Source: a virus
IMG/VR virus record: IMGVR_UViG_3300042351_000704
Span: 1-64,000 of that record
Direction: 5' to 3' (one strand)
DNA: 64,000 nt
In this document: positions 3,913-55,310 of the stretch, piece after piece
Layout: each line of letters opens with the position of its first letter
Position numbering within the stretch: the stretch's first letter is position 1
Position numbers and translations under genes: made by a program
The notes under the pieces: generated by a model
Told to the model about the DNA's origin: nothing
The model's database searches: none
The model's input: the letters and a program-made list of their open reading frames with translations, nothing else

Positions 3913-4690
3913 ACGTGATTGGATCAGTGCCACTTCTTTTATCGGAAACTTTAAACAACCCTTTGACGCAGATGCCATAGCCGCAAAAAGCAGCCGCAAG
4001 AAAAACTCTAAGTGGTATGGTATGACTCCTGATGATATCAAAGCAGCCTGGAAAGCAGAAGCCCTTCGTGCTACAACACTGGGCACCTGGTATCACAACT
4101 GCAGAGAGCGTGACCTTTGTGAACTGGAAACTATTGAACGCACTGGTGTCACTGTACCGATTGTAAAACCAATCGAGATAGAAGGTGTCAAGTATTCTCC
4201 CGAGCAAAAACTTTTTGATGGTGTCTATCCGGAACACCTGGTTTATTTAAAGAGTGCAGGCATCTGTGGTCAGTCCGACCTGGTAGAAGTGATTAACGGT
4301 CAGGTGCACATCACCGACTACAAGACCAATAAAGAAATTAAGACAGAAGGATTTACTAACTGGGAAGGCATCACTACTAGAATGTTACCACCGGTGGCGC
4401 ACCTGGATGATTGTAACCTGAATCATTATGCATTGCAGCTGAGCCTGTACATGTTTATGATTTTAAAACACAACCCAAGACTAAAGCCTGGTGTACTTAC
4501 TATCCACCACATCTTATTTGAGACCGTGGGAGAAGATAAGTTTGGTAATCCTATCACTGCCCTGGACACTACAGGTAATCCCATTGTAAAAGATATTGTG
4601 CAATATGACCTGCCTTATTTAAAACAGGAGATTGTTGCACTGCTGCACTGGCTGGAAGATAACCGTGATAAAATAAAAGCCAAGCATTAA
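3854..4690 (+). CDS. PD-(D/E)XK nuclease (RecB/Cas4-like)
   Basis: GTWYH, GICGQSDLV, ITDYKT and HYALQLSLY motifs; start moved to the in-frame CCT-ATG at 3854. Confidence 0.9.
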   Translation: MILRFTPQDHKYTSIKKEDERDWISATSFIGNFKQPFDADAIAAKSSRKKNSKWYGMTPDDIKAAWKAEALRATTLGTWYHNCRERDLCELETIERTGVTVPIVKPIEIEGVKYSPEQKLFDGVYPEHLVYLKSAGICGQSDLVEVINGQVHITDYKTNKEIKTEGFTNWEGITTRMLPPVAHLDDCNLNHYALQLSLYMFMILKHNPRLKPGVLTIHHILFETVGEDKFGNPITALDTTGNPIVKDIVQYDLPYLKQEIVALLHWLEDNRDKIKAKH

Positions 4691-5370
4691 TGAGAGTCTT
4701 GTTTGATCACATCAACGGTTTTGGAAAAGTGAGTGACCAGGATTTTATCTACTCGCAGCCGCATGGTGTGCTAGAAGAAGGGGAGAGTGCAAGTGAAGCA
4801 TTAGCCTGTGGTTGGATACCCTGGGAAGACGCGTGGTATAACCTGAGATCAGTAAGAATAGACTTGAGTGCATACAAGCCTCATGAAACTACACGCAAGA
4901 AAGCAAAGCTTGTTAATGGTGTGTACGAAAAGTTTGAAGATAGTCCTGAGTACAGAGAGCTCTATGAGAAGTATTGCGCTCACCATGGATTTCAACGGAC
5001 GATTACATGGGAACAGTTATTTACCGGTAGCGTAATAAATTATTACTACAACGATAAGCTGATTGGCTATTCTACAGTGGATATATATGAAGATGCCATG
5101 GTAGCTACACAGTTTGTATGGGACTACGCAGAGCCATCACTATCACTTGGAAAGGTAGCACAGATGTATGAGTGTGAAGCTGCAAAAATGATGGGCTGTA
5201 AGCATGTGTACATCCTGGGTGGATACGAGAAGTGTTGTTTATACAAATCTGACTTCTACGGATTTCAGTGGTGGACCGGATCTGTGTGGAGTGAAGATAA
5301 AGACCTATACAAAAAACTTTGCCTGCGCGATGACCAGGCCAAAGTAAACTATGAAGACTATGATACATGA
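4690..5370 (+). CDS. ATE1/Bpt-like aminoacyl-tRNA--protein transferase
   Basis: ALACGW..RSVRIDL, ELYEKY, KLIGYSTVD and FVWDY..PSLSLGK...GCKHVYILGGY..CCLYKSDF line up in order with ATE_N/ATE_C motifs. Confidence 0.75.
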   Translation: MRVLFDHINGFGKVSDQDFIYSQPHGVLEEGESASEALACGWIPWEDAWYNLRSVRIDLSAYKPHETTRKKAKLVNGVYEKFEDSPEYRELYEKYCAHHGFQRTITWEQLFTGSVINYYYNDKLIGYSTVDIYEDAMVATQFVWDYAEPSLSLGKVAQMYECEAAKMMGCKHVYILGGYEKCCLYKSDFYGFQWWTGSVWSEDKDLYKKLCLRDDQAKVNYEDYDT

Positions 5371-27895: not shown

Positions 27896-27901
27896 GAATA
27901 T

Positions 27902-30900: not shown

Positions 30901-32179
30901 TGCATCTACTGTTGGTGGTTATGCTGTTGCTGTAGGAGGTTCGGCTAACACTATTCCTACAAGAAATGGTAGTGGTTATTTAATTCCTGAAAACTGGATT
31001 CAGCTTAATGGAATATACGGTCTATATTCACCAACAAATAATGCTCATTTAAGACCTAATGATGCAAGTTATGGTTCTTGGTTAATGACTGGAAGTAGAA
31101 ATGGGTGGCAGGGTATTGAGTTTAATTCTGGAGGTGCTGGTAATGTTACCATGATGATTTCCAATGATTCTAACACTTCTGGATTCCATAACAACTCTTA
31201 TGGTTGGCAGATTAGATGGGCTAATGGTACATTGTTTTGTGGCAAGAATTCTTATGGTGGTAATGATGCTACAGTTTGGGATAGTAGCAATGCTCCAAGA
31301 GCATCTAATTCACATCTAATGTATTATCAAGGGTTTACTTTGAACGCTGATACAATGGATGTTAATGCTACAGGATTTACATATGCTGTAAATGCTCCAT
31401 ATGTAGGACCTATAGTAAGATTTAGTACAGGTGGTGGTTATGATTTATGGTTAAACGCAGCTTACGGGGGATCAGGTAACTTAATTGCATTTAGAACAAG
31501 AAATGGAGATTCTGCGACACTTAATCCTTGGAGAGAGTTTATTACTTCTGGAAATATAGGAAACCAGTCAGTATCATATGCAAATAATGCTGGAAACGTA
31601 TCTAGCATTAGTGGTGCACTTAACGGTAATCATACCTGGACAAACATAAACTACTTTTTAACAAATAATGGAGGTTATTTAGGCAGTACTAATACAGCTA
31701 AGCTTCAAGCGTTTTCTTATGATAACAACTCAGCATTTATGTCTTTTCATAAGTCCAGCCATTACGCTGTAAACTTTGGACTTGATGCTGATAACGTAAT
31801 GCGTATAGGTGGATGGTCTGCTTCTGCAAACAGATGGCAGCTAGACATGTCAGGTAACATGACTGTTGCGGGTGACGTAACTGCTTATTCTGATGCCCGT
31901 GTGAAAGAAAATGTTGAAACTATTGTACAAGCTTTAGACAAGGTGTTACAACTTCGAGGTGTGAGCTACAACAGAACTGACTCTGATGACAAGAAGACTA
32001 AGATTGGTGTGATTGCACAAGAAACACTGGTTGTTGTACCGGAAGTAGTTAACCAGGACAACACAGGTATGTACAACGTATCTTATGGTAACCTTGCCGG
32101 ACTTTTTATTGAAGCCATCAAAGAACAGCAGAAACAGATTGAAGACCTTAAATCAAAGCTAGATGCCCTTACAAAGTAG
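27902..32179 (+). CDS. tail fibre/spike with C-terminal peptidase S74 domain
   Basis: Gly/Asn/aromatic-rich modules; AYSDARVKENV...IGVIAQE...LFIEAIKEQQKQIEDLK. Confidence 0.9.
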   Translation: MAVLQSTSITGSLTMNSMTAGFMKVNAQGAVVMDTNTYLTGVTSGQVTGALGYTPYNSSNPSGYVNSSNWAILSGATSYNTDRTTKVSNGLAIYSAYSGGANSPTTYDISAQYVVAGKGMEMAASWHSPSATMFFRTLRDCCDNWSSWVTMLSSANFNSYALPLTGGTLSGNLYVTNSSTVGAIFLSGAQSGARQYMIQNGITGISNSGLQIRDVTGNASLVYFDTSYNASFGAGIWATSGNFSAAISASNISSGVNASHIVQRDGNGYIYANHINFNTPESENPAISSFITSNGDGWSRKSSLAHVRNQLGNYGGWITSSGSITGNAATATYATNATRLYASDGSYVYGGAAPYYMTMTYDGSRWLLQVTPGTPAAVRVAYADAAGSASSAGNADTVDGYHATNAASGLAYYASNGYLYVPSWINVNGGGIFASTNNAHLRPNTGSYGAWEMIGSKNGWSGIWFNDSSDYLMANNNEVGHYQHGVGWKFRWYQGTMYISRGTTGGGSEFTVLDSGNYTNWAIARGGDTVSGQFSFTKTDDHAIQVGTIRGRAVGSQGGEFIQLYERVNIGGPNGWGASNTGAPTYGLSVFGGATIGYGNNGGLTVNGNINAPSGYVSNGNPWGTSNSAFFPNGITTAGGTNWVYGLTYLGNAPGNGSGAQVESNGRIYVRANSAAAYNGFAGQFVDRNSASSNHVPWSFENEWGNHSWGVVARFHIQQASADRPSIQFTNGTNNTRWGVGYCFADDNFRISQDIGMAPDGSSGSWGTERFRINTDGTTLLGIQGSNTNVYGLLRLASNNHLYLDNNFGQTIVGLYSASRYQGVFAMGDAYKLPVDGTSTGSLYGLAWSHPNAGGVAGNLNTHGLLVLENGGFLAAISGSIRARDDMRAPIFYDSNDTGYYLDMNSTSNSAGRIRGGILFGPNPTWGRYLQVGGNGNQNTDYASVVTTDGNLHLDSRAGNAMYLNYYANGIIYLNGATYYISANGAFYNGTASYANSAGNASTVGGYAVAVGGSANTIPTRNGSGYLIPENWIQLNGIYGLYSPTNNAHLRPNDASYGSWLMTGSRNGWQGIEFNSGGAGNVTMMISNDSNTSGFHNNSYGWQIRWANGTLFCGKNSYGGNDATVWDSSNAPRASNSHLMYYQGFTLNADTMDVNATGFTYAVNAPYVGPIVRFSTGGGYDLWLNAAYGGSGNLIAFRTRNGDSATLNPWREFITSGNIGNQSVSYANNAGNVSSISGALNGNHTWTNINYFLTNNGGYLGSTNTAKLQAFSYDNNSAFMSFHKSSHYAVNFGLDADNVMRIGGWSASANRWQLDMSGNMTVAGDVTAYSDARVKENVETIVQALDKVLQLRGVSYNRTDSDDKKTKIGVIAQETLVVVPEVVNQDNTGMYNVSYGNLAGLFIEAIKEQQKQIEDLKSKLDALTK

Positions 32180-41530: not shown

Positions 41531-41894
41531 AACTCCCAAGGTGCAAACCACTGTTCAGCTGCCAATGTATAACTGCAAGGTGGTAATGACAGTAGTGGAA
41601 AATGTCAAGCTTGAAGTAGAAAAACTATACAAGAAACACAAGATAAAAGAAGAGTTTGATGATGAAGCGGAAGGAGCTGTAGTAATGCCTGGTATGGATA
41701 CGTACTATTTACTGCTGGGACAAGCTTACCTCACACATAACACCATTGCACACGAGATATTTCATGCCGCTGTTCGTGTAACAGAAGACAGGGGAATAGT
41801 AGATGAAGAAGCACAGGCCTGGTTAGGCGGACACCTTACCGGACACCTTTACAAATTTTTAGACAAGAAGAAGCTACCAATAAAACATGGCTGA
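41520..41894 (+). CDS. small HExxH zinc-metallopeptidase-like protein
   Basis: IAHEIFHAA...DEEAQAWL; likely start is the ATG at 41520. Confidence 0.75.
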   Translation: MVSKTPKVQTTVQLPMYNCKVVMTVVENVKLEVEKLYKKHKIKEEFDDEAEGAVVMPGMDTYYLLLGQAYLTHNTIAHEIFHAAVRVTEDRGIVDEEAQAWLGGHLTGHLYKFLDKKKLPIKHG

Positions 41895-44800
41895 ACAATC
41901 ACAGAATCCAGGGGCGGTAACTAATTCCTTTTCTAAAGGAATGGTCAAAGACTTTAATGACACCTTTGTCGGAGAGGGACTGTGGAGCCATGCTCGTAAC
42001 GCAGTGAATAATTCACATGACGGACAGGTAGGTGTAATTGGTAATGAGCCAGCCAACTTGCATTGCGTAACTCTTCCGTATGATCTTATAGGATGCATTC
42101 TGTTAACCGATGACCGCTGGGCCATCTTTACTACCAACGATATAGATTCTGAAATAGGCATCTTTGATGAATCAGCCTGCACGTATACTAAGGCAGTCAA
42201 TGACCGTTGCCTGAACTTTAAACGTTCTAACCTGATTACAGGTATCAGCCGCAGACGCTACGATTGTGAGCGTCCGGTGTATTGGGCAGATGGTCTGAAC
42301 CCGGACCGTTTCATTGACCTGGACAATATTCCATTTAAGTATACTGAAACTCTGGTAGATGGTTGCATACAACGCACCTTTACCAATCAGCTGGATTGTG
42401 AAAAGATCAGACTGGCTGCTTACATCAAGCATCCTTGCCTGGAACTCTCACAAGGAAAGGTGGCAGGTAGTCTGTTAAACGGATCTTACCAGGTAGCGAT
42501 TGCTTACACCATCAACGGATCCAGGGTGACTGATTACCTCGGCCTATCCGAAGTGCAGTCTTTGTTTACCCACGAGAACAACAACTCTTCTTTGGAATTG
42601 AAGGTGCTTTCTGTTGATACCACCTTTGATACGTTTGACCTGGCTCTGATATCAAGAGTTAATGAGCAAACCTTTGTACGTAAGATCGGAGAGTATTCTA
42701 CTTCTCAGGGTACTATCTACATTGACCGTATCGATTTTGAGACTCCTACTATTCCTATACAAAACATCCTGCTGCGTTCAGAGCCTATTGAAAAAAGTGA
42801 TGCCCTGTACAGCGTGAATGATTACGCGTTACGCGTGGGTGTATACAGCAAGTTTAAGTTTAACTACCAGCAGCAGGCTAATAAGATTAAGACCAGCTGG
42901 GTGGCAGTAGAATATCCTAATAACTATTACATCAAAGGAGGAAACAATACCAGTTACTTAAGAGATGAGCAGTATGCGTTCTTTATTCGTTTTATATACA
43001 ACACCGGTGAACGTTCAGAGTCTTACCATATACCAGGAAGAGCAGCTACATCTTTTGATACACAGAATATCACAGGTACAGATGTATACGAAAACCTTGA
43101 CGGCATTCAGCGTCAGCGCTGGCAGGTAGAAAACACTGCATCTGTAAACAGTATTAGCACAGCAGCACTACCAGACGGTGGAAAGGTGGTAGCCAGTGGA
43201 GAGATGGGTTATTGGGAAAGCACCGAGCTTTACCCGGCAGATAAACCCAACATTTGGGGAAACCTTTGTGGTAAACCAATTCGTCACCACAAGATGCCGG
43301 ATGTAACTATTACTGGTGGTGGTGTAGTGAATCACTTTACTACAGACGGTAAGATTGTGCTTTTAGGGGTGCAGTTTGATAACATTATAGCTCCTGTTGA
43401 CAACAACGGTCAGCCGATTGCTTCTATAGTAGGTTACGAGATCCTTCGTGGATCACGCCAGGGTAATAAGTCCATCATGGCAAAAGGTATGTTTAACAAC
43501 ATGCGTGAGTATACCATTCCTGGTAACACTACACTAAAAGGACTTTACCAGAACTACCCATACAATGATCTTCGTCCGGATCTTTATCTGTCTGACAGAA
43601 GAAGAATCAGCGGAGAAGGTGTAGTGAATGTAACAGAGAGTAACTCTCCTACATTAAAGACTTACAAAAAAGATGTCTTTTCTTTTCATAGCCCGGAAGT
43701 AACTTTTACCAATCCGTTCCTGAATGCTGATGAAGTAAAGATTTATGAAGAATTGCATGGTACTGCACGTGGTCAGTTTGAAGTTCCTTTCCGTCATCCG
43801 AAGTTTAAGGTGGCAACCAACTTTACAGCAGCTGTGGCCAGGATCTCCGGACTTATGGATGCAGTGGCTAAAGTGGGCAAGGGTATCAAGATTGCAGCCA
43901 CCGAGAATATTCCGATTGATATGCAGTTTGGTCCGATCGGTAAACCACCTGCATTTCCATCTGCATCAGGTGGAGAAATTACAGGTCCGTTGCAAACAGC
44001 AGCTGCCTGGGCTAAGTATGCCCTTGACCTGATTACCTGGGGTGTAGAGGTAGCAACCATAGTTTCTCTTATAGGAGCTCTTGCAGAAATACAGTCTGAG
44101 AAACTCTTTGAACTTTTCCGTATCCTGATTCCTAAGCGCCAGTATGCTGCACAGTATAACTCGCATGGTTTCTATGATAAGTTTATTATTTCTTTAGTCG
44201 GCAACAGAAGAAGAAAGATTCTTGACGCCAGCTATATGGCCGGATCTAACCTGCAGTATTTTAATGATAAGTATCAGGTGAACAACATTCACCGCAGCTC
44301 AGGACTGGTAATACAAACACATGCAGACATCAGTAATCCTACGGTAGTAGATAACAGCCGTACCACAATTTCTGATTCAGGTAAAGGACTTTACAATACA
44401 TTTAGTACTACCATTTCTTCACACTACGGAGCAGTAAAACTGTTAATGCCATCTCAATATGGTCAGCTTAATTCTATAAAGCAACTGAGCGTATCGGTTT
44501 GCATGCATCCGATGAAAGCAGATACTACAACCAAGCATTCTACAGGTGTGTTGTTTGGTGGAGATACTTACATCAACCGTTTTACAGAAAAGAATAGCAT
44601 GTTCTTTTTTAACAACTGGCTGATGGGTGAGCAGGATGATATCGAGTTTGATTACACCCAGTATATCAATGTGCCTTGGGCCCGTTACTGGTTACATAAT
44701 ACACAATACCACAGTACGTTCTTAAAAGCAGCTGATGATTTCAGAGCACTGGATGACAGGCAGTCTTCTGCATTTCACGTAAACCGTGGTTACTTCTATC

Positions 44801-46458
44801 TCTTTAATTCAGGCGTGCGTGACTTCTATGTAGAATCAGAAGTGAACGTAGCGTACAGAGACTGGGAAGATGACTTTAGCAGACGCCACTATGATCCGTT
44901 ACGTTATACAGATCTTAGCATGCTATTTCGCTCTGATATTATCAAGAGTGGAAACTACTATAAGTATGATTACTCTTTGAGTGTATCTAAGCTGTTCAAC
45001 TCCCAGATTACCTGGGGTGAATTACTACCAAGAGATTATGATCCCGAGGTGGCTGCTACCTGTTACACTTACAGACCTAACCGTGTATTGTATTCTTTAC
45101 AACAACAGGACAACTCTAAAGATGATAACTGGAGAGTATACCTGGCCAATAACTACCGTGACTTCCCTGCCAGGGTAACAGTAATCAAATCAGTGAATTC
45201 TACTGGTGCGTTATTTATGCTCAAAGACAGAAGCCCTCAGCTTTTTAGCGGAGAGGAGCAACTGAAGATGGACGGTACAGGCGCTGTGATCAGTATTGGT
45301 GATGGTAACTTATTTAACCAGCCTGGTCAGTTGAAGTCTATTGTCAATGCAGACCGCTCTTACGAGTATGGCTCTTGCCAGAGCAAGTATGCTCACCTGG
45401 GGAATGTATACGGTGTATTCTGGGTAAGCCAGGACCAGGGTAAAGTGTTCCAGTATGCCGGTGGTATCAATGAGATATCACGCGATGGTATGAAATACTG
45501 GTTTGCCAAATACCTACCAAGTGAATTACTAAAACTATACCCTGAATATCCACTGGCGGATAACCCGCTTGTTGGTGTAGGTGTACAAATGATCTATGAT
45601 AATACCAATGAGATTATCTACATCAGTAAGAAAGATTACAAGCCAAAGGTTAGTAACCTACTTTATGATGATAAAGGATTCTATTCTCTGGTAGGCACTG
45701 TAAAAACTTACCGTCCGTTTACCGATTCAACTGCATGGGAAGACGCCAGCTGGACTGTATCATATGATCCAAAATCAAAGACCTGGATCAGCTACCATGA
45801 CTGGAAACCTACGTTCCTGATACCTGGTAAGAATCATTTTATGAGTGTAAACCGTAACAGCATTTGGAAACACAACATGCGTTGCGATCTGTTCTGTAAC
45901 TACTACGGTGTTGACTATCCGTTTGAAGTGGAGTTTATTTCTTCTACCGGACAGCAAACGACTTCTCTTAGAAACATTGAGTTCCTGCTGGAAGCATACA
46001 AGTATCATAACAGCTGTGCAGATAAGTTCCATGTACTGGATGAAAACTTTGACCAGGCTATTGTCTATAACTCTGAGCAGATCTCCGGACTACTGGAGCT
46101 GAACTTAAAGAGCAAGACTAATCCGGTGTCGATGTTAAACTTCCCGCAAGTGGGACCACAGTCTATCAAGATCCTATACGCAAAAGAAGAACAGAAGTAC
46201 AGGTTTAACCAGTTCTGGGATATTACCAAGAACCGTGGAGAGTTCAGTGCAACAACCAATGTACCAATGTTTAATACCAGGGCTAACGGATATGAGTTCC
46301 CGATTAACCCTCAGTATGTAAACTATCAAAAGTCACCACTTGAGCATAAGAAGTTTCGTCATAACGTGAACCGTGTATTACTCCGTAAACTGAAGAGTGC
46401 AGACGTGAAGCTACTATTCAAACTATCTAACCAGAAAATATTACAATCACCGAGGTAA
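41887..46458 (+). CDS. tail stabilization (muzzle) protein
   Basis: 1523 aa beta-rich; RDEQYAFFIRF, GKPIRHHKMPD, FGGDTYINRF, WTVSYDPKSKTWISYHDW; crAss-like synteny. Confidence 0.85.
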   Translation: MAEQSQNPGAVTNSFSKGMVKDFNDTFVGEGLWSHARNAVNNSHDGQVGVIGNEPANLHCVTLPYDLIGCILLTDDRWAIFTTNDIDSEIGIFDESACTYTKAVNDRCLNFKRSNLITGISRRRYDCERPVYWADGLNPDRFIDLDNIPFKYTETLVDGCIQRTFTNQLDCEKIRLAAYIKHPCLELSQGKVAGSLLNGSYQVAIAYTINGSRVTDYLGLSEVQSLFTHENNNSSLELKVLSVDTTFDTFDLALISRVNEQTFVRKIGEYSTSQGTIYIDRIDFETPTIPIQNILLRSEPIEKSDALYSVNDYALRVGVYSKFKFNYQQQANKIKTSWVAVEYPNNYYIKGGNNTSYLRDEQYAFFIRFIYNTGERSESYHIPGRAATSFDTQNITGTDVYENLDGIQRQRWQVENTASVNSISTAALPDGGKVVASGEMGYWESTELYPADKPNIWGNLCGKPIRHHKMPDVTITGGGVVNHFTTDGKIVLLGVQFDNIIAPVDNNGQPIASIVGYEILRGSRQGNKSIMAKGMFNNMREYTIPGNTTLKGLYQNYPYNDLRPDLYLSDRRRISGEGVVNVTESNSPTLKTYKKDVFSFHSPEVTFTNPFLNADEVKIYEELHGTARGQFEVPFRHPKFKVATNFTAAVARISGLMDAVAKVGKGIKIAATENIPIDMQFGPIGKPPAFPSASGGEITGPLQTAAAWAKYALDLITWGVEVATIVSLIGALAEIQSEKLFELFRILIPKRQYAAQYNSHGFYDKFIISLVGNRRRKILDASYMAGSNLQYFNDKYQVNNIHRSSGLVIQTHADISNPTVVDNSRTTISDSGKGLYNTFSTTISSHYGAVKLLMPSQYGQLNSIKQLSVSVCMHPMKADTTTKHSTGVLFGGDTYINRFTEKNSMFFFNNWLMGEQDDIEFDYTQYINVPWARYWLHNTQYHSTFLKAADDFRALDDRQSSAFHVNRGYFYLFNSGVRDFYVESEVNVAYRDWEDDFSRRHYDPLRYTDLSMLFRSDIIKSGNYYKYDYSLSVSKLFNSQITWGELLPRDYDPEVAATCYTYRPNRVLYSLQQQDNSKDDNWRVYLANNYRDFPARVTVIKSVNSTGALFMLKDRSPQLFSGEEQLKMDGTGAVISIGDGNLFNQPGQLKSIVNADRSYEYGSCQSKYAHLGNVYGVFWVSQDQGKVFQYAGGINEISRDGMKYWFAKYLPSELLKLYPEYPLADNPLVGVGVQMIYDNTNEIIYISKKDYKPKVSNLLYDDKGFYSLVGTVKTYRPFTDSTAWEDASWTVSYDPKSKTWISYHDWKPTFLIPGKNHFMSVNRNSIWKHNMRCDLFCNYYGVDYPFEVEFISSTGQQTTSLRNIEFLLEAYKYHNSCADKFHVLDENFDQAIVYNSEQISGLLELNLKSKTNPVSMLNFPQVGPQSIKILYAKEEQKYRFNQFWDITKNRGEFSATTNVPMFNTRANGYEFPINPQYVNYQKSPLEHKKFRHNVNRVLLRKLKSADVKLLFKLSNQKILQSPR

Positions 46459-49400
46459 TGAGTCAGTTCCTAAAATATATTACTAAGAAGATGCGTGGTG
46501 GTGGAGACATTGGTTCTTTGCCAGGTGTTCTTTCTTTGTCTGCTATCCAGCAAAAGATCAAGCTTGAAAAGGACATTAAAAATCAGAAGGCTAGAAATGC
46601 TCAGGCTACTATTTCTCAGTACATTCCAAAGCCTGGAGATCAGCAGAGAATGAACAGAGCCAAAGATGCTTACCGTGCAGACCTTGCTAAGCCTTTAAAC
46701 AGGGCAGCAGAGTCTCAGCTGGCAGCCAATGCCTGGAGCAACATTGTAAAGCCTATGCTGGAAATGGAAGGGATTGCATCTGGTGTTAGTGGTGTACGCA
46801 GTATGCTGGCTAAACCAAAGAGAATACCTACCAGTTTTTATTCTGATCCGGTGATTACTAGAGGACCTATTCCTAACCCATGGGATGGTAAAGGAATACG
46901 CGTGGAGATGGAAGGATCTTTAGACGTACCAGAAGGTATGATGCCTTATATAGGTAGGGAAGAGTGGGTTCCGACTACACCTGCAGAAAAGGTGTGGGCA
47001 TCTTTTTTTAACGGAAAGGCAAGACCTATTCCTCCTCCATATAAAAAACAAAAAGGTGGAGCTTATGTAGACTCTGTCTTTAATGCTCCAAATAATAAAC
47101 AACTAGAATGGGTTCAAAGACTCTATCAAAAAAATGGTAAGAGTATTATGGTACCTGGACAAACTGAACCGTCTACACATTATATGGAAAGTGGTGATGG
47201 TCGTGTGTATCCAACTGTAGTAACAATGCCTGACGGTAGTTTAAAATATTTAGGTAAAGGTGCTTATGATTATGCAGACTCTACTAAAACTTACATAAAA
47301 TTTCCAACAGATAATCAAGCCAAGTGGTTTGGTAAGAACTATAAAAAAGGAACTGGTGTACTAGCTAAGAAAAAAGGCGGTCCTATAGTAGACCCTCGTG
47401 GTCAGTGGGCACATCCTGGAAAGGTTACACGTATACCAGGATCTGACATCACTATGCAAGGTGTACCTTATCCTGTATTAGGTGTAGGCTCTAATGGTCA
47501 ACAGCAAATGATGTATCCTGGTGAAAACTATGATTTTGGTGGTGCTGCGTATGTAGATGAGTACCCAATGATGCAGTTTGGTGGTGGAACATTACTTGGT
47601 CCTTCTGGAATGATAATGTCACTAGCTTCTAAAGTTGCTAACTATTTTTCTAAACCAAAAAGTTCGGGAACTAATAAACGCATGACGACATATGGTCAAA
47701 TGAATGATAGTTATGCTAATAGAAATAAAACTTTCTATGATAAGTGGCAAGCTAATGATGCAATAAAGTATGATAGTTCAGTGAACCCTATTAATTTAAC
47801 TTCTGGTCGTTTTAGAGGAGCTAAGGTAGCACCAGGAATGATTAATGATATAGTTAACGCAGCTAAAACTAATAATGTAGATCCATGGTTAATGTTATCT
47901 CTTGTAGGTAGAGAATCTACTTTTGGCGCAGACAAGGAGTATATTGACCACAGAGAAGGTAATAAACAAGACTTAATTTCAGGTTGGAATGTAGCAGAAG
48001 ATTATCAACCATATGAAGTAAATAGATACTTAGCTGATAAAAAAGTACCAGGTATTAAAGTAATTAAAAATAGTGATGGTTGGAGTTATGAAGTAGAAGA
48101 TGAACAAGCTATAGAAAGTTATCTAAAAAGTAATCCCAAACTTATAGATGATTATTATAAAAAATTAGCATCTACACCTGATCTTGGTAAACTAGATAGT
48201 TTTTCTCTTGCTGCTCAAAGGATTAAAAAGAAAGGGGTTAAGAATTACAATCCCGGTGATCCTAGATATTCTTCTATGGTAAATGAAGATATGAATCTTT
48301 TAAAGAATGATGCTGCATTAAAAGCATACATGAAAACTCTAGGATATAGACAAGGTGGAGAATTTGGTGGTGTTGTTAAGATGCAACGTGGTGGTAGATC
48401 TATGTTTGATCCTATATTTAAGGAGGATCCAAAGCTTAATAAAAACAGAGGTGATATAGCATCCTACTTTCCTCAGATACAAAGGATGAAGGATGAACCT
48501 AAGATAAAGGAGGCAATCGTTAAAGCTGATCAGAAAAGACAACAACAAATACTTGCAGAGGCAGTTGCTATAGGTAATAAAAACAGAACCACTGTTAAAC
48601 AAGATAATAGAACATCTAGAGAAAAAGAGATTGCTCAACAACAAGTTGTTAATGCATACTTGAATGAAGCTAAAGGTAAGTCTCCTTTTGCTCAAACATT
48701 AAGTTCTTTCACACCAACAGGATATAATCCAGAGGCTAGTAAGATAGCCGCTGAAAACATAGGACAAATGACTCCTATGATGGGAGCCACTAGATTATTT
48801 AACACTGTAAGAGATCCTGAAAATAACCCTTATGGTATTGGTCAAGGGAATGGATTTCTAGCAAATACATTAGGTACAATAGGATTACTTGGAGATGTTT
48901 TTGATGTAGGTGCTGTAGCTGCTCCTGGTGTAAAAGCTGCAGGTAATTATCTTACCCAACAAACACCTTTAAGAAATGCTCATAAGTTAAATCCTTATGC
49001 TTTAACTGATGATATGTTGTTTAACAAAGAAGGAGTTGTTAACAGACAAATGTTTGGAGATGATGCTTACAACAGTTTTTTAAAATTTGGTCCTACTACT
49101 AGACCAGGTGTTCCAGAAATGGATAAGTTTATGGAATTTATTAAAGCACCTAGATCACAAATAAGATCTGCAAATGATGAGGTGTTTGAGGTTGTAAACA
49201 CTATGGAAGATGGAGTATTTAAATATCCATATTTTCAAGAAGGTAGTCTTTGGTATACAGGACAGCAAAGAAATAATCTTGCTAAGGAATTAGGAAAAGA
49301 AAGAATTATAACAACTCCTAAGTCAGATATTTGGTTTGCACCAGCTGGAGAAGCTACATTAATGGGTGGTGATGATCTTGTTTCAAAAGGTTTAATAGAT

Positions 49401-51722
49401 AGGTACTCAAAAGGAAGAAGAGTGTTGATACCAGGAACTGAGTACGCCAAACCATCTAAGTATTCTGTATTTGAACCACATTGGTGGAAAGGTTATAAAC
49501 AACTACAAAAAGATGGTGGTCAGATTTTAAATGACTATGATATAATGCAATTAGGAGGTCAGTCTGCAAAGAAAAGTCCGTATTTTTTTATGAACTTAAA
49601 TGATGACTTTACTACAATGCTTAAAAATAGAGACTATGTAAAAAGTGAGTATAACAAGGGTATGGATTTTCATACTAAGTGGCTTAACTCGCCTATGTAC
49701 AAGAGTATGATTAATGCATCTGATCCTGTCAATGCAAAAAATATTACTGACCAACGTAAAGATCGTCTTTCTGCTGTGACTATGAAATACGTTGATGACC
49801 CATATAATAAAGCTGGAGCTTCTGCTGATCAATTAGGAAATATAGAAGTATACCCAGAAGGAATTGGTGCTAAAGGTATAGGTGTTCATGAGATCTCTCA
49901 TGTAACAGATACAGGTCCAGGTCAAAATCTTATACCTACTAAAGATAGGATTGATATATCAAGATATAGTCTTGCTTCAGAAAATATCCCAAAGTATAAT
50001 GCTTATAAAGAGTATTTTAATTATGTTACTCGACCTTCAGAAACAAGAGCTAGGTTAAATGAAATACGCCAAGGAGCTTCTGAAAATAAATTATATGATC
50101 CATTTACTGAGAAAGTAAGTCCAGCTATATATAATAAACTTAAAAACTTCAAGTTTAATAGTACACCTGGTAGTGATCCTCTTCAACAATTAAGGTCTGC
50201 TTACAGTGATGAACAGATTTTACAAATGCTTAATAGTGTTTCTAAATTAAGTACTAATAAAAATAATGATATGCAAAACATGATGAATGATGGTGGAGAA
50301 ATGATACGTAGAGCTGATGGCACATACTCTCGTAGAGGTCTATGGGACAACATACGTGCTAACAAAGGATCTGGCAAGAAGCCTACAAACGAAATGCTGG
50401 AACAAGAACGTAAGATCAAAGCTAAAGAAATGAAATACGGTGGTGGCACCAACAATCCTGGCTTTGAAGCTTTGCCTGATTATGTACAGGCTAAGATCCT
50501 TTCTAACATGGGATATGGTGGAATGACCTATCCGTTTATGCAAAAAGGTGGTGAACCTGATGGATCTATGGCTCTTGGTCAAATAGATGCTGCTATGGAT
50601 AAACTACAAAAGCTTCGTCAGTTTATACAACCGGATTCTGATCTCGAACCATGGATAAGTTCTAAACTTACTATGATGGATGACTATGCAGATGCTGTTT
50701 CTGACTACATGATGTATAATCCAGATGCTGAACTAGATGAACTAGACCAAATGAGAAATGGCGGATATGTTGTTACAAGAAGTGATGACCGTAAAGGAAA
50801 GACACATAAAGTGACCGGACCTGATGGTACTGTAAAATACTTTGGTGATTCTAAGCTGGGTCAGCACCCGGGTGATCCCGAAAGAAAAGAAGCATTCTAT
50901 GCACGCCATAAAAAGAATCTGGATGGTAATCCATACTTCAGAGCGTTTGCAAGAGAGACATGGGCAGATGGTGGTGCTCTAGAATATGGTATGGGTGGAA
51001 TGCCTTGCTATGAGTGTGGTGGCGCTATGTATAAAGAAGGTGGAATGTACGACTGTCCTGATCAGGAAAAAGATCCTGTAACAGGTAAATGTAAAGCTGA
51101 GGTTGTTCGTGGTAGAGAAGCAAATGCAGCTAACAAAGCAGCTAATGCAGACATGAACGCATGGGCTAAGCAAGTTGCTGCTATGGATAAAGAAGTTGCT
51201 AAACAGAATGCTGCTCAGTATGCAGGACAAAGAAGTTTTGATTATGACTGGATGCAATCTCCTGTAGATAAAGCAGAGAAGAAAGCAGCCATTGCTCAAT
51301 ACAAACAATTTATTCAGCAGAACCCTAACGTATTTGTAGCAGATGATTCATCCGGGGTTAGCCCAGAACAGAAGTATATCATTGCTTCTAAGCTTAAGCA
51401 AAAGTCAAGCACTCCAATGGGGTCCAAAGCATTTCAGCAAAAGTTTAACCAGGATGCACGCTTACTAGATCTTGGACGTATACAGTCTGACATTGTTCCT
51501 TTAATGGGTGGCTGGAGTGGAATTCAGAACTGGCTTTTTGGTAATAAAAAATTCGGTGGCTACATAGGACAAGACGGAAAACGTCACATGTCTAAAACAC
51601 CTACCTGGTCTGGTAATGCCGGTTATAAACAAGGCGGTCCGGTTATAGGAGAAGAGATGGAAGTAACTCCGGAGCAACTGGAACAACTTCGCGCACAAGG
51701 CTATGAATTTGAAATAATCTAA
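46458..51722 (+). CDS. modular internal virion (cargo) protein with repeated xxxGG linkers; SLT-like, HExxH and other modules
   Basis: Position after muzzle; about 19 GG motifs; LVGRESTFG; VHEISH; FYARH. Confidence 0.75.
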   Translation: MSQFLKYITKKMRGGGDIGSLPGVLSLSAIQQKIKLEKDIKNQKARNAQATISQYIPKPGDQQRMNRAKDAYRADLAKPLNRAAESQLAANAWSNIVKPMLEMEGIASGVSGVRSMLAKPKRIPTSFYSDPVITRGPIPNPWDGKGIRVEMEGSLDVPEGMMPYIGREEWVPTTPAEKVWASFFNGKARPIPPPYKKQKGGAYVDSVFNAPNNKQLEWVQRLYQKNGKSIMVPGQTEPSTHYMESGDGRVYPTVVTMPDGSLKYLGKGAYDYADSTKTYIKFPTDNQAKWFGKNYKKGTGVLAKKKGGPIVDPRGQWAHPGKVTRIPGSDITMQGVPYPVLGVGSNGQQQMMYPGENYDFGGAAYVDEYPMMQFGGGTLLGPSGMIMSLASKVANYFSKPKSSGTNKRMTTYGQMNDSYANRNKTFYDKWQANDAIKYDSSVNPINLTSGRFRGAKVAPGMINDIVNAAKTNNVDPWLMLSLVGRESTFGADKEYIDHREGNKQDLISGWNVAEDYQPYEVNRYLADKKVPGIKVIKNSDGWSYEVEDEQAIESYLKSNPKLIDDYYKKLASTPDLGKLDSFSLAAQRIKKKGVKNYNPGDPRYSSMVNEDMNLLKNDAALKAYMKTLGYRQGGEFGGVVKMQRGGRSMFDPIFKEDPKLNKNRGDIASYFPQIQRMKDEPKIKEAIVKADQKRQQQILAEAVAIGNKNRTTVKQDNRTSREKEIAQQQVVNAYLNEAKGKSPFAQTLSSFTPTGYNPEASKIAAENIGQMTPMMGATRLFNTVRDPENNPYGIGQGNGFLANTLGTIGLLGDVFDVGAVAAPGVKAAGNYLTQQTPLRNAHKLNPYALTDDMLFNKEGVVNRQMFGDDAYNSFLKFGPTTRPGVPEMDKFMEFIKAPRSQIRSANDEVFEVVNTMEDGVFKYPYFQEGSLWYTGQQRNNLAKELGKERIITTPKSDIWFAPAGEATLMGGDDLVSKGLIDRYSKGRRVLIPGTEYAKPSKYSVFEPHWWKGYKQLQKDGGQILNDYDIMQLGGQSAKKSPYFFMNLNDDFTTMLKNRDYVKSEYNKGMDFHTKWLNSPMYKSMINASDPVNAKNITDQRKDRLSAVTMKYVDDPYNKAGASADQLGNIEVYPEGIGAKGIGVHEISHVTDTGPGQNLIPTKDRIDISRYSLASENIPKYNAYKEYFNYVTRPSETRARLNEIRQGASENKLYDPFTEKVSPAIYNKLKNFKFNSTPGSDPLQQLRSAYSDEQILQMLNSVSKLSTNKNNDMQNMMNDGGEMIRRADGTYSRRGLWDNIRANKGSGKKPTNEMLEQERKIKAKEMKYGGGTNNPGFEALPDYVQAKILSNMGYGGMTYPFMQKGGEPDGSMALGQIDAAMDKLQKLRQFIQPDSDLEPWISSKLTMMDDYADAVSDYMMYNPDAELDELDQMRNGGYVVTRSDDRKGKTHKVTGPDGTVKYFGDSKLGQHPGDPERKEAFYARHKKNLDGNPYFRAFARETWADGGALEYGMGGMPCYECGGAMYKEGGMYDCPDQEKDPVTGKCKAEVVRGREANAANKAANADMNAWAKQVAAMDKEVAKQNAAQYAGQRSFDYDWMQSPVDKAEKKAAIAQYKQFIQQNPNVFVADDSSGVSPEQKYIIASKLKQKSSTPMGSKAFQQKFNQDARLLDLGRIQSDIVPLMGGWSGIQNWLFGNKKFGGYIGQDGKRHMSKTPTWSGNAGYKQGGPVIGEEMEVTPEQLEQLRAQGYEFEII

Positions 51723-51725
51723 ACT

Positions 51726-54700
51726 ATGAGAATACGTATAACAAAGAAAGGGTTAGCTAGTTACCAGGGTGCCATTGGTTCAAGCCAGGTTGGTGATCCA
51801 AATGATGCATGGATTCGTAAGATCCTTGAATATGAAGCACAGAAAGGATCTGCTACAGGTAGTGGTTTGTCTAACTTTGGGTATAATAATTGGCAAAAGC
51901 TAGGTCATAAAAACCCTCCTCGTTCATTAGATGAAGCTGTAGAATTTTATAAACAAGACTTTCTTCCTAAAGTACAGCAGTATCCCATGGGTCTTCGTGA
52001 GCGTATGGGAGACTATATATTTAATACAGGTAGAAATCCTAATGACTTGCTTCTTTATAACGCAGGTAAGATTACACTAGATCAGTTAAATAGTCCAAGT
52101 ACATTTACAAATGAGTGGAATCAGTTTGGTCCTGAGATTGAAAAACAGTATAGTAAGCCTAGCTTTATTAATAGCTTAGATGCTAATAAAGAAAATGTTT
52201 ATAAAACTACAGGAACTTATGATGCCCCTGATCCATTAGATCCTACAAAGAACGTTAAGACTCGCTATTCTTTAGATAATCCTAATCCTGCTTTTACAGC
52301 TACTTGGCAAGGACGTACAAATATGTGGGGAAATTATTTAAACCCTAAAGCTACTACATTACCTACACGTAAACCTGTTACTAATCCTACTGCACCACAA
52401 TCAATTAGTAGCAAAACATCATCTGCTGTTCTTCCACCTACTGCTACTGCTCAAACAATTGCAGGTGGGTTAAACAATGACCAGCTTATGTATGGAGCTA
52501 ATCCATTTGTTGTAACACAAGCTGATACTGATATGGCTGACCTTGCATCAAACAGTGCTGCGTCACCTATAACACCATCTCCTTCACTTCCTGCAATGAA
52601 TATGACAGGGATGAATTATGCATGGACTAACTTTGGTCAGGCTCCTACAGTACCTACACCACGTGTAACTACAGTGTCTCCAAGTGGTGCTAAGACAACT
52701 ACCGGTAATGTTGGTAAACCAACCGTTCAGTATCAAACAAACAATAACGGTACACCGGCTGCTCCTTTTAATGTGGTGCGACCGGGAAAAAAACCATCAA
52801 GATCTCCTTTTGACCTGGTAGACCTGGCTTTGCCTGTTGCCCGTTACTTTAATGCAGAGGCTCAGGTGAAAGACGCACGTATTAAAGAAATGGAATCCCG
52901 TTTCAATACGCTGCAAGGTGCTCCTAAGTTTCGTGGCAACTTTACAATCAACGAAGGTTTATTCAGACCTGATGACAGAGGTGTAAACGAAGGAATGTTT
53001 AGTAATGGATTTTACGCTCCTACCATGCAATATGGTGGAGATATGATAGAAGATACAACAATGAACTCTATGAAAATACGTATAACAGGTGCGCCACAGA
53101 TGGCGTATGGCGGACAATCAAACTATGGTCTTGACTTAGGTCAGCGTAATGTGTATGAGAATATGCAGGACAGTCTTTCAGAAAACAGTTCTGAATCTAT
53201 GTCTGAGCAATCTGAAGCATACGGACCTCATGTACTGGAAGCCGAAGGTGGTGAAACCATCCTGCGTCCGGACGGCACACATTTCAACATCTCAGGAGAC
53301 AGACATCACTCAGGTGGTGTAAAGCTAAACCAGGACCAGGCTCCTTCAGGTTCATTTATATTTTCTGATACCAATAAGATGAAAATAAAAGATCCGGCTA
53401 TACTGGCAAAGTTTGGCGTTGCCTATAAAAAAGGTGGCGTTACTCCGGCACAGATTGCCAAGAAGTTTAAGCTGAATGATTTTAAAGCACGCCTGGAAGA
53501 CCGCACCAGACAAACTGATTCTATCGGTATGAACTCTGATACCCAGATGATGAAAAAGAACATGCGTTCACTGGCTGAACTGGCTATGATACAAGAAGCG
53601 ATGAAAGGAGAACAAGCTCCTATGATCAGCCAGGCTATCCTGGGATCTTCTGAAATGGCATATGGCGGACATGTGATGCCTAAGTTCCAGGGAGCCAAAG
53701 GTTCTTCTACTGTAAAAGGTGGTCTGGGTGAATGGAGCGATGACTATGAAACATTAAAGACATTACTGCAGGATCCTAAGAACGCAGGCCTAAGAAAGTC
53801 TATGTTCCAGAACTACCTGAAAGACTATTCTAAGTCTCCATTAAAGAATGATCCAAAAGGAGAAGACAAGTTTATACAAAACTTCCTGGAAGCTCAGCGT
53901 CAGTTCATGGGTATCCGTGCTTCTTATGCTGATAAACCAGATCAGCTTACTTCAGAAGACTGGGATCGTACAGGTAAAAACAGACGTTACCAGGCAGAAG
54001 CTAAAAAGCTTGGATATACTCCTTTAGCAGAAACAGACATCAAACGTTTTCAGGGTGGTTACCGCGCACTTGCAAAAGCTTCCCGTAATCCTGAGTTCTT
54101 TGAGAACTTCTCTAAATACTTCAAGTTATCACCTATAGGTGTAAAAGATGAGGAGTATTTAGGTCAGCCTATTTCTAAAGATGATTCATGGGTAGGTAAC
54201 ACTACTCTGGGTCAGCTGGCTCAACTGCGTGATGTAAAACCTGGAGAGCAACCAAAGCCTCGTTACATCTGTGATGCTAATGGTAAAATTGTTACCGTAG
54301 CAACAGGTGGTTACGCCACTGCAGATGAAGCACGTAAATATTGTCCTGAAAAGAAAAAACCAGGTTCTAAATATGTATGTATAGACGGACAGGTAATCAC
54401 CACTGAATCAGGTGTAGGTTATGACACTCCGGAAGAAGCAGCACAAAACTGTGGTTCAGAGCAGGGTAAAGTACCTTTTGAATTCCTGGCTCCTGATAAG
54501 ATGAACATGGCCTGGAAGTTTAATCGTGCCGTTCCAAATATCTATTTACCAGAGATGTATCAGTTACCTAGACGTCAGTATCCTCTGGCGCTCGATGATT
54601 GGTTTGCCCGTGTACAAAACAGACAATCCACATACAACACTGCTATGGACACTGCAGCAAGAACTAACCAGTCTCAGGCTGTAGGATCTTTCCTTGCAGG

Positions 54701-55310
54701 ACTGGTAGGCGCACAGGATGCAACTGATATTGCACAAGTAAACTCTGCTAACCTGGATCGTGTAGACAGAAGACAATTAGTAGATATGGAAACAGATTTT
54801 AAAAATGATGTCTTCAACCTGGGTCAACGTCAGGAATACAGCAAAGGACTTGCAATTGCTCAACAGCAATTTGATAATGCACTTAACAAAGGTGTGGGAG
54901 ATGCAATACAATCATTTGCTGATGCGTATGAAAACCGTGGTGATCTTTATGACATCAACATGCGTGATCCGTATTTTTATCGTCATCCGGCTAACTACAA
55001 AACAATCTTCAAAGGTTCTACCGGAAACATTTTTAATGCTGGTACTATTGCTGGTATTGGTACTAATGGAGCTGGTGGGTTTTCAGGTGTTGGTGCTTCT
55101 GCTAATGCTGTTTACAAAGATATATATGATGGCTTGACAGATGTGAAAGATGAAAAAGAGAGATCAGCATTTGCAAAACAGTTAGCAGCTAATTATATGG
55201 CTGGGTCTCGTCAGACTAATACTCGGTCTTACGATGCGTTTGGATTCCCAAGATCATCAAGTCGTAGATCATCTAGCTTAAACTTTTTTAACCAGGATGA
55301 TGACCAGTAA
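51726..55310 (+). CDS. internal virion (cargo) protein with N-terminal GH108-like lysozyme module
   Basis: ILEYE..G...SNFG...EAVEFYKQDF...LRERMGDYIFNTG; EAEGGE...GDRHHSGGV block; MxYGG motifs. Confidence 0.7.
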   Translation: MRIRITKKGLASYQGAIGSSQVGDPNDAWIRKILEYEAQKGSATGSGLSNFGYNNWQKLGHKNPPRSLDEAVEFYKQDFLPKVQQYPMGLRERMGDYIFNTGRNPNDLLLYNAGKITLDQLNSPSTFTNEWNQFGPEIEKQYSKPSFINSLDANKENVYKTTGTYDAPDPLDPTKNVKTRYSLDNPNPAFTATWQGRTNMWGNYLNPKATTLPTRKPVTNPTAPQSISSKTSSAVLPPTATAQTIAGGLNNDQLMYGANPFVVTQADTDMADLASNSAASPITPSPSLPAMNMTGMNYAWTNFGQAPTVPTPRVTTVSPSGAKTTTGNVGKPTVQYQTNNNGTPAAPFNVVRPGKKPSRSPFDLVDLALPVARYFNAEAQVKDARIKEMESRFNTLQGAPKFRGNFTINEGLFRPDDRGVNEGMFSNGFYAPTMQYGGDMIEDTTMNSMKIRITGAPQMAYGGQSNYGLDLGQRNVYENMQDSLSENSSESMSEQSEAYGPHVLEAEGGETILRPDGTHFNISGDRHHSGGVKLNQDQAPSGSFIFSDTNKMKIKDPAILAKFGVAYKKGGVTPAQIAKKFKLNDFKARLEDRTRQTDSIGMNSDTQMMKKNMRSLAELAMIQEAMKGEQAPMISQAILGSSEMAYGGHVMPKFQGAKGSSTVKGGLGEWSDDYETLKTLLQDPKNAGLRKSMFQNYLKDYSKSPLKNDPKGEDKFIQNFLEAQRQFMGIRASYADKPDQLTSEDWDRTGKNRRYQAEAKKLGYTPLAETDIKRFQGGYRALAKASRNPEFFENFSKYFKLSPIGVKDEEYLGQPISKDDSWVGNTTLGQLAQLRDVKPGEQPKPRYICDANGKIVTVATGGYATADEARKYCPEKKKPGSKYVCIDGQVITTESGVGYDTPEEAAQNCGSEQGKVPFEFLAPDKMNMAWKFNRAVPNIYLPEMYQLPRRQYPLALDDWFARVQNRQSTYNTAMDTAARTNQSQAVGSFLAGLVGAQDATDIAQVNSANLDRVDRRQLVDMETDFKNDVFNLGQRQEYSKGLAIAQQQFDNALNKGVGDAIQSFADAYENRGDLYDINMRDPYFYRHPANYKTIFKGSTGNIFNAGTIAGIGTNGAGGFSGVGASANAVYKDIYDGLTDVKDEKERSAFAKQLAANYMAGSRQTNTRSYDAFGFPRSSSRRSSSLNFFNQDDDQ

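Follow-up and report, generated by a model that had tools for sequence, protein, structure and literature searches.

In guts and waters, Crassvirales and their relatives rank among the phages of highest abundance, and the function of the cargo that they inject is largely unknown. In crAss001, the slot directly after the muzzle gene is occupied by cargo genes (PMC10172136), and C1 (gp45) was modelled as one chain reaching from the tail barrel to the capsid (Bayfield et al. 2023; PMC10172136). Another described class is that of the polyvalent proteins of phages and conjugative elements, which carry 2-15 unrelated catalytic or binding domains per polypeptide (Iyer, Burroughs, Anand, de Souza and Aravind 2017; PMC5512222). 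Here, we analysed a giant gene of the IMG/VR record IMGVR_UViG_3300042351_000704 (109.5 kb, estimated to be 85% complete, 98 open reading frames (ORFs)); "the window" refers to positions 1-64,000 of this 109.5-kb record. The gene product, P0001, consists of many modules separated by Gly-Gly (GG) peptides. By comparison of protein sequences, this motif was shown to be the exact point of module swap, insertion, deletion and permutation among thousands of relatives, and to be confined almost only to inter-module positions. Our preferred reading, with a probability of roughly 0.6, is that P0001 is a polyvalent cargo protein of the C1 type from a distant crAss-like phage, with the junction peptides acting as uncut hinges or joints.

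46458..51722, + strand: P0001, 1,754 aa, probable modular cargo (polyvalent) protein (open frame and translation)

Gly-Gly motifs in P0001 and its relatives

All 19 motifs listed by an earlier annotation made from the letters alone (the original prediction) were found where it had placed them in 46458-51722, together with four extra GG runs (YDFGG at 361, EFGG at 637, TLMGG at 970 and PLMGG at 1684). The 23 runs represent a modest excess over the 14.4 ± 3.2 expected (2,000 shuffles, maximum 24). The excess was large for [M/Y]-x-x-G-G, with 15 copies against 1.5 expected, and close pairs of motifs with short spacers were frequent. Among the best 120 homologues, 854 copies of [MY]xxGG were counted against 122 expected, and the motif logo was P(-5) x [M/Y/K](-3) [Q/A/K/E](-2) x G G [E/Y/Q]. 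The junction peptide takes the form (Y-P)-[M/Y/F/K]-[Q/A/K/E]-x-G-G and represents a defined linker of 5-12 residues. Elsewhere in the record, clear enrichment of [MY]xxGG was seen only in the adjacent gene, 51726-55310 (4 vs 0.7 expected); two short ORFs beyond the window, 84814-86793 and 96787-97467, contain 2 copies each against 0.1 expected.

Depletion of GG inside the modules was discarded as evidence because the modules were defined by GG, which makes the test circular; the clustering of gap lengths was marginal (p about 0.05). An internal translation start at the ATG of the motif was rejected because Y, K and F replace M in many copies, and 2A-like skipping at NPGF was rejected for lack of the consensus.

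A large family with a hallmark module

The search for homologues of P0001 returned 505 proteins of 964-3,070 aa, most of which cover 5-50% of the query. Across these homologues, the Pfam domains ART-PolyVal, ADPrib_exo_Tox, YkuD, Amidase_2, Glucosaminidase, DUF5872, DUF5754 and DUF3597 were identified. One module of about 70 residues, S4 (residues 304-376), was present in 116 of 119 homologues. A scan of 1.84 billion representatives, clustered at 50% identity, identified S4 in 2,930 clusters, and the family size is accordingly given as at least 2,930 protein clusters. S4 is absent from Pfam.

47382..47588, + strand: hallmark module S4 (309-374) with the linker YVDEYPMMQFGGG, common to nearly all relatives

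In all of 129 new representatives, S4 has the pattern ...GG/PIVDPRGQWAHPG...ITMQGVPYPV...YxFGGAxYVDEYPMMQxGG(G)/. In these 129 independent cluster representatives, the exit PMMQxGG is followed by at least 10 different modules, and 461 copies of [MY]xxGG were counted against 78 expected. Where S4 has an upstream module, GG stands directly before it in about 77% of 221 occurrences. An N-terminal S4 is never preceded by GG, and the fraction of proteins ending within 3 residues of a GG was 0/249; the motif thus belongs to the joints and not to the modules. In two related loci, the conserved S4 exit junction reads PLMQAQNGAII (L011, 7920-14396) and PQMQMAKKGGS (L012, 7980-10781). The GG has been lost or displaced there, indicating that Gly-Gly is dispensable at some joints.

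S4 showed a weak match (34% over 81 aa) to the N-terminus of gp041 of Cellulophaga phage phi17:2, whose annotation as a virion structural protein derives from its similarity to gp40 of phi4:1. We infer that S4 may be the carrier or virion-docking part. A role of S4 as a protease was rejected, as no invariant Cys, Ser or His is present.

Across the family (P0002-P0257), the protein ends are recurrent as well. More than 50 proteins share the N-terminus MNKLLQ[HY]x, and the C-termini fall into the classes QGY.FEI[IL] (the commonest), GGWL[NT]KYK, ..YNHKRNK and ..GIKVTYKK. Close orthologues of P0001 carry ..NAGD.. in place of the GGG of its N-terminal peptide, and 42 of 119 homologues align through to its very C-terminal end. 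These recurrent termini may be loading or docking signals.

46458..46505, + strand: N-terminal peptide MSQFLKYITKKMRGGG, residues 1-16, a variant of the common family N-terminus MNKLLQ[HY]x that holds the first motif (comparison of family termini)
51639..51719, + strand: C-terminal tag PVIGEEMEVTPEQLEQLRAQGYEFEII after the last GG, a recurrent family C-terminus with a weak DUF7210 match

Related parts were also observed in the cultured cyanobacterial Leptolyngbya phage Lbo-JY46 (PP438436.1; L021, 13575-17086), whose muzzle homologue shows 27% identity over 93%. The gene after it has an S4-like N-terminus ending in MLQAGG and a lysozyme-like C-terminus, and the next-but-one gene ends in FQQGG followed by YNLGEEIDLSPEEVAKLIELGYDFEVV, the same C-terminal tag as in P0001. 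The carrier parts therefore extend past phages of Bacteroidota.

Module exchange at the motif

Specifically, 69% of the BLASTP segment endpoints in the 119 homologues lay within 8 aa of a GG run, compared with 19.6% of all positions, which bears out the claim that the motifs stand at the borders of unrelated modules. In all-against-all comparisons, 48.5% of the endpoints were within 3 aa of a GG run (vs 9.0%). Segments ended most often at the last G and began 1-4 residues ahead of this position; adjacent blocks of similarity thus overlap by the motif alone (4-5 residues).

The module maps of the homologues showed free permutation. For example, P0013 reads YVDEYPMMQRGG/KFMFD, where the 304-376 module (S4) is joined directly to the module that starts at 642; at this joint, P0001 has module 378-632 inserted between two MQxGG copies. 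Still other module orders were found in P0033 and P0004. The plug-and-play array of the original prediction was thus recovered, with modules gained, lost and permuted exactly at the GG motif across homologues. Three close relatives have the gene divided over two ORFs, and the point of division is not at a GG.

Constraint on the junction peptide

In alignments running through the motif (35-75% identity), conservation was 0.645 at position -3 and 0.73-0.75 at the two Gly, and it fell to 0.39-0.48 at the flanking positions, below the background of 0.556. The synonymous sites of the GG codons (0.40 and 0.60 vs 0.54 in the S4 interior) were not homogenised. Conserved residues with unremarkable synonymous sites indicate selection on the peptide and not on the DNA.

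These values bear on the possibility that the motifs are only recombination scars, that is, that short DNA repeats coding for the motif mediate cassette exchange and the peptide has no role in the protein. The breakpoints fall exactly in the motif, adjacent similarity segments share its 4-5 residues, an insertion or deletion lies between two MQxGG copies, and GGT codes for the first Gly in 19 of the 23 runs, all of which would agree with such scars. However, homogenisation at the DNA level, looked for at the synonymous sites of the GG codons, was not seen, and the DNA held in common amounts to only about 5-12 nt. Moreover, M, Y, F and K alternate at -3, suggesting constraint on the type of residue, and the motif is kept in colinear orthologues while its flanks drift. 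Scars without a protein role are therefore highly unlikely.

The junctions also appear to be disordered. An AlphaFold2 (AF2) model of residues 1270-1754, with a mean predicted local distance difference test score (pLDDT) of 47, was used only to locate disorder, and 11 of the 12 GG runs of this C-terminal array fell in stretches with pLDDT below 50.

Codon usage divides P0001 into classes. For modules 202-306 and 378-1278, the GC content at third codon positions (GC3) was 0.16-0.19, whereas the other modules had 0.27-0.36 and the 13-codon N-terminal peptide 0.46; S4 and the N-terminal module lie above the central modules. For the whole of P0001, GC3 was 0.235, compared with a genome ORF mean of 0.41 and with 0.52 for TerL and portal. 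None of the 65 Leu codons in residues 202-1278 is CTG, which accounts for 45-48% of Leu in TerL and portal, in agreement with the AT-rich central modules and non-CTG Leu codons noticed before. This codon mosaic fits a recent import of cassettes. Additionally, two tail-fibre genes with Peptidase_S74 chaperone ends (22316-32179, + strand) have a GC3 of 0.20-0.22 and TTA-rich Leu, like the central modules of P0001, suggesting that exchangeable host-interaction genes form a separate compositional class.

Module map of P0001

At least 12 modules were delimited in P0001 by homology breakpoints. Besides S4 and the two terminal elements, the following were mapped.

46506..47054, + strand: module 17-199, native-like codons, GC3 0.35 (covered by 4-11 of 119 homologues)
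47061..47375, + strand: module 202-306, low GC3, placed after and not before S4 in relatives (in P0033 and L002, the 304-376 module precedes the 198-308 module)
47589..48353, + strand: module 378-632, VGRESTFG ... GWNV ... NYNPG, GC3 0.16; SLT-like resemblance seen by eye only
48396..49514, + strand: module 647-1019, a helical part, a hydrophobic Gly/Ala-rich segment from 799 (read from sequence) and a globular part
49560..50291, + strand: HExxH module 1035-1278, with H1144, E1145, H1148 (nt 49887-49901) and E1195 conserved
50298..51047, + strand: mini-module array 1281-1530, with 8 GG runs between units (motif positions, AF2)
51048..51506, + strand: helical module 1531-1683, pLDDT 65-78 in AF2, which moves as a unit (1509-1703) in homologues

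Searches of the whole protein against Pfam and PHROGs returned only the weak DUF7210 match at the C-terminus, and a tblastn search of 50,697 phage records returned no match. Sequence and profile searches of the Protein Data Bank (PDB) with modules 378-632, 647-1019 and 1035-1278 and with the alignments A3 and A4 returned no meaningful match. Two of the modules had been labelled SLT-like and toxin-like, and neither label could be verified. Module 378-632 had no Pfam SLT match even at E 10 and no PDB match by sequence or profile, and module 647-1019 had no Pfam, PDB or ART-PolyVal match; its ESM Atlas scores of 0.80-0.83 represent a lead only. P0001 itself had no match to MPTase-PolyVal, ART-PolyVal, LPD23 or SLT. 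Because SLT, ART-PolyVal and LPD23 were without a match in the record even at E 10, the two labels stay unverified.

The array 1281-1530 holds a DUF5754-like module (RGLWDNIRA), TNNPGFEALP, a helical module, the FYARH domain and a stretch with four Cys (CYEC ... C ... C). It was modelled mostly with low pLDDT, and its GG runs lie within low-confidence stretches. Pfam DUF5754 and DUF5872 are carried by relatives. A search for stand-alone copies of the FYARH mini-domain returned only 8 matches, on contigs of 0.5-2 kb that are probably fragments. The four Cys at residues 1517-1545 (51006-51092) are the sole cysteines of P0001, lie among three GG runs and are kept in the related locus L002. In other relatives, S4 is immediately followed by a distinct zinc-ribbon-like cassette (CSNCGHSWK..GG.DP..CH).

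A zincin-like module

The HExxH zincin of the original prediction was upheld by a nearly invariant H/E/H/E set (H1144, E1145, H1148 and E1195) in 18 sequences and by a modelled zincin fold. The AF2 model of residues 1035-1278 had a pLDDT of 85 and a predicted template modelling score of 0.82; model residues 12-227 were folded, and both ends next to the motifs were disordered. Helix 107-117 of the model carries HExxH, and the distal Glu opens helix 159-175. The top structural matches of VIA-align were almost all zinc metallopeptidases (PepO/neprilysin, lethal factor, PPEP and thermolysin; Z 7.4-5). A Foldseek search of the PDB with this model gave nothing at E ≤ 0.001 (E above 0.1). In the ESM Atlas, the module fell at 0.90 into a cluster with 82% LPD23 members, which is a lead only, and Pfam LPD23 had no match in the record even at E 10. 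A locus search with the module returned only a relative that was already known. We conclude that module 1035-1278 is a predicted zincin (gluzincin-like) domain of metallopeptidase fold that belongs to no recognised family.

The phage and the neighbourhood of the gene

The record encodes proteins that match Pfam Crass_capsid (the Crassvirus major capsid protein) and CrAss_Ring_1/2 (tail ring proteins 1 and 2). TerL and portal are of crAss-like type, TerL being 25% identical to those of crAss-like, Flavobacterium and Cellulophaga phages, and a 3,112-aa ORF occupies the place of the virion RNA polymerase (vRNAP). The source virus is most likely a distant crAss-like phage.

41887..46458, + strand: muzzle-like virion protein, 1,523 aa (PHROG virion structural protein families)
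51726..55310, + strand: next gene, 1,194 aa, with MQYGG, MAYGG (twice) and YKKGG in residues 434-648 (motif count)

In tblastn, matches spanning 89-93% of the muzzle-like product were obtained to Leptolyngbya phage Lbo-JY46 and to virion structural proteins of Cellulophaga phages phi17:2/phi4:1; the match to crAss001 gp44 was weak (E 0.03 only). The synteny, read from the IMG/VR loci of related viral contigs, was stable: the order muzzle-like gene, then GG-array gene was kept in every locus of L002-L012 that reached far enough upstream. This synteny puts the GG-array gene in the cargo-gene slot of a crAss-like phage. The position after a muzzle-like gene, as implied by the original prediction, holds in the window and in the related loci reaching upstream. 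On its other side, the gene is followed by the giant genes of the vRNAP region, a virion/late-gene context. The gene 51726-55310 may be a closer counterpart of C1 than P0001 is.

Are the joints cut?

Several viral and bacterial cysteine proteases, including adenain, pS273R of African swine fever virus (ASFV), Ulp/SENP (Q-x-G-G) and the C39 double-glycine peptidases, cut after x-x-G-G. P0001 may accordingly be a cleavable polyprotein, in which a packaged, co-ejected or host protease would cut after Gly-Gly in the filled capsid or after ejection and so free the effectors. The frequent pairing of motifs with short spacers and the 13-residue N-terminal leader ahead of the first motif would suit such a scheme. 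Moreover, the resident zincin domains of polyvalent proteins were predicted to process them (Iyer et al. 2017; PMC5512222), and P0001 has a zincin-like module. However, four relatives of 91-100% completeness have the motif but lack this module, which is also missing from about three quarters of the homologues.

The original prediction that the GG motifs are maturation-protease sites is unsupported so far. The protease search that it had proposed detected neither clan CE C48 nor another tested family: Pfam Peptidase_C48, C39, S78 and MPTase-PolyVal had no match in the record, and C5, C57 and C63 were not searched. Among the 25 Pfam families listed, of 55 matched, in the 90 other ORFs, there was no peptidase. 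Pro at P1' is unfavourable for most endopeptidases, and Pro follows GG in half of the best-conserved junctions, those upstream of S4 (110/221). Additionally, the hydrophobic residue would stand at P5, whereas adenain has it at P4, the motif is lost at some conserved junctions (PLMQAQNG in L011), and cutting at spacers of 2-8 residues would yield pointless products.

For crAss001, neither PMC10172136 nor PMC6235969 mentions a maturation protease or cleavage of gp45, and no band of gp45 on sodium dodecyl sulfate-polyacrylamide gel electrophoresis is stated in the text or the available supplements of PMC6235969. Residues 425-552 of gp45, with three GG runs inside (427-8, 434-5 and 447-8), were resolved as one continuous chain on the portal (PMC10172136), so that these runs are uncut in the virion structure. 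Taken together, the failure to detect a cognate protease, a zincin that is not conserved with the motif, Pro after GG and the crAss001 chain favour an uncut hinge over cleavage. A cleavable polyprotein is possible but doubtful. That the junctions [M/Y/F]-[Q/A/K/E]-x-G-G are a cleavage code for an as yet unrecognised protease, packaged by the phage or belonging to a Bacteroidota host, is likewise rather unlikely.

Two observations touch on cutting. Among 14 control genomes, a Peptidase_C48 match (Ulp1-like, which cuts after Q-x-G-G) was obtained only in Bacteroides thetaiotaomicron, which places a clan CE protease on the host side, within the phylum presumed to include the host. Separately, a 226-aa ORF of the window (4690-5370, + strand) matches Pfam ATE_C, the C-terminus of arginine-tRNA-protein transferase, at 42.8 bits, above the cut-off; an aminoacyl-tRNA-protein transferase of the N-end-rule type is unusual in a phage. 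Glu is the commonest residue after GG and is among the N-terminal residues that ATE-type enzymes modify, which, as pure speculation, would be relevant if the joints were cut.

Gly-Gly motifs in crAss001 gp45

No significant direct similarity was found between P0001 and gp45 (E above 5). The gp45 protein has 20 GG runs against 11.7 expected, including FSAYGG, LKAFGG, NAFGGWL and MFAYGG. A GG-flanked mini-module at residues 368-445 of gp45 is common to P0235, P0104 and P0047 of the P0001 family (E 9e-8 to 9e-4, in a small database). Residues 214-245 of gp45, which start 4 residues after a GG, lie in the tail barrel (PMC10172136).

Both resolved particle-bound segments of gp45 begin at, or 4 residues after, a GG motif, which would suit a role of the repeated peptide as a multivalent docking or packaging tag that binds the portal, the ring proteins, the capsid interior or other cargo and so loads or holds the chain. 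The restriction of the motif to two adjacent cargo genes and its conservation beyond GG, which suggests recognition by a partner, point the same way. However, the other presumed cargo proteins, including the 3,112-aa vRNAP and proteins of 1,630 and 1,761 aa, lack the motif. It is also missing from the protein ends, where a tag would be expected, and its residues were not reported as contacts in the crAss001 paper (PMC10172136). We regard docking or packaging tags as distinctly unlikely.

Discussion

The uncut hinge, the reading preferred here, would divide P0001 into conserved carrier parts (the N-terminal peptide, the 70-residue S4 and the C-terminal QGY.FEII tag) and exchangeable cassettes (the zincin-like metallopeptidase, two large modules without a known fold and numerous mini-domains), with neighbouring cassettes linked by a conserved junction peptide in a disordered linker. 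As in the proposal for crAss001 C1, the protein would be packed in the particle and threaded out of it as a single extended chain, from the N- to the C-terminus. Its Gly-Gly peptides would be mainly uncut hinges or standard joints, at which the modules can fold, unfold and refold independently, and a standard joint would let any cassette be spliced in frame beside any other. A further contact, for docking, may come from the conserved hydrophobic residue.

Several points weigh against this reading. The conserved Met/Tyr at -3 and Gln at -2 would be unneeded by a plain hinge and resemble protease sites or docking motifs, and a short linear motif that is conserved in disordered linkers, with unrelated modules on either side, speaks for cleavage. 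The motif is unused by the other giant proteins of the phage. The evidence for the uncut state comes by analogy from the distant crAss001, where the GG runs are in or at the edge of a folded domain and are not typical linkers. The presence of P0001 in the particle is putative, suggested by the synteny and by the weak Cellulophaga structural match of S4. In addition, the record is 85% complete, Pfam is blind to novel proteases, and a general prediction of processing was made for polyvalent proteins by Iyer et al. (2017; PMC5512222).

One cargo slot would here be an open platform, in which a small conserved carrier receives effector cassettes spliced at a standard joint; across the family, these cassettes include a zincin-like metallopeptidase, ADP-ribosyltransferases, cell-wall enzymes and many mini-domains of unknown function. 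The joint provides a simple rule for dividing giant hypothetical proteins into testable units, which aids the finding of new anti-host or anti-defence effectors. If the joints were cut, crAss-like phages would deliver a true polyprotein that gives rise to a dozen or more effectors or small peptides after packaging or on entry, with cassettes exchanged at the sites. To our knowledge, the polyprotein-cutting strategy is one of eukaryotic viruses and not of tailed phages, for which it would be new. If the joints are uncut, nature would here offer a design by which multi-enzyme chains are threaded through a narrow tail.

Comparison with known systems

Full-text literature searches found no published description of the Gly-Gly junction motif, and neither PMC5512222 nor PMC10172136 mentions it. 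Like the gene of crAss001 C1, that of P0001 directly follows a muzzle or muzzle-like gene, and both proteins are GG-rich and use the same [hydrophobic]-x-x-G-G grammar. The GG-flanked mini-module of C1 recurs in members of the P0001 family. C1 is stored as an extended, partly unfolded chain (PMC10172136). Unlike C1, P0001 is twice as long and carries enzyme-sized cassettes, and the portal-binding domain and transmembrane helix of gp45 were not found in it.

P0001 resembles the polyvalent proteins in its many unrelated domains in one chain, its late/virion gene context and its extensive mosaicism; polyvalent proteins are thought to enter the host with the DNA, and homologues of P0001 carry ART-PolyVal, ADP-ribosyltransferase, peptidoglycan hydrolases and a zincin. 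However, no junction motif is described for polyvalent proteins ("glycine" and "linker" have 0 occurrences in PMC5512222), their processing enzyme MPTase-PolyVal was undetectable here, and the zincin of P0001 is distinct and unclassified.

With the substrates of the adenovirus protease ((M/I/L)XGG-X) and of ASFV pS273R (GG-X), P0001 shares a repeated x-x-G-G between the functional units of particle-associated proteins. The clan CE protease is encoded by the virus in those systems, whereas none was detected here (C48 was tested; C5, C57 and C63 were not searched). In P0001, cutting is putative, and the hydrophobic residue stands one position further from the would-be scissile bond than in adenain sites.

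In CdiA (VENN), Rhs (PxxxxDPxGL) and the MARTX effector arrays, a short peptide marks the border for cassette exchange, and in Rhs and MARTX this border is also a cutting site. These proteins are substrates of bacterial secretion with one variable tip or a fixed processing domain, whereas the P0001 family has about 20 equivalent joints per protein, allows any module order and has no conserved processing domain. Finally, g3p of filamentous phages has flexible, uncut Gly linkers between the independently folding domains of an entry protein. Those linkers are long low-complexity (E)GGGS repeats without a consensus, whereas the joint of P0001 is a defined motif of 5-12 residues.

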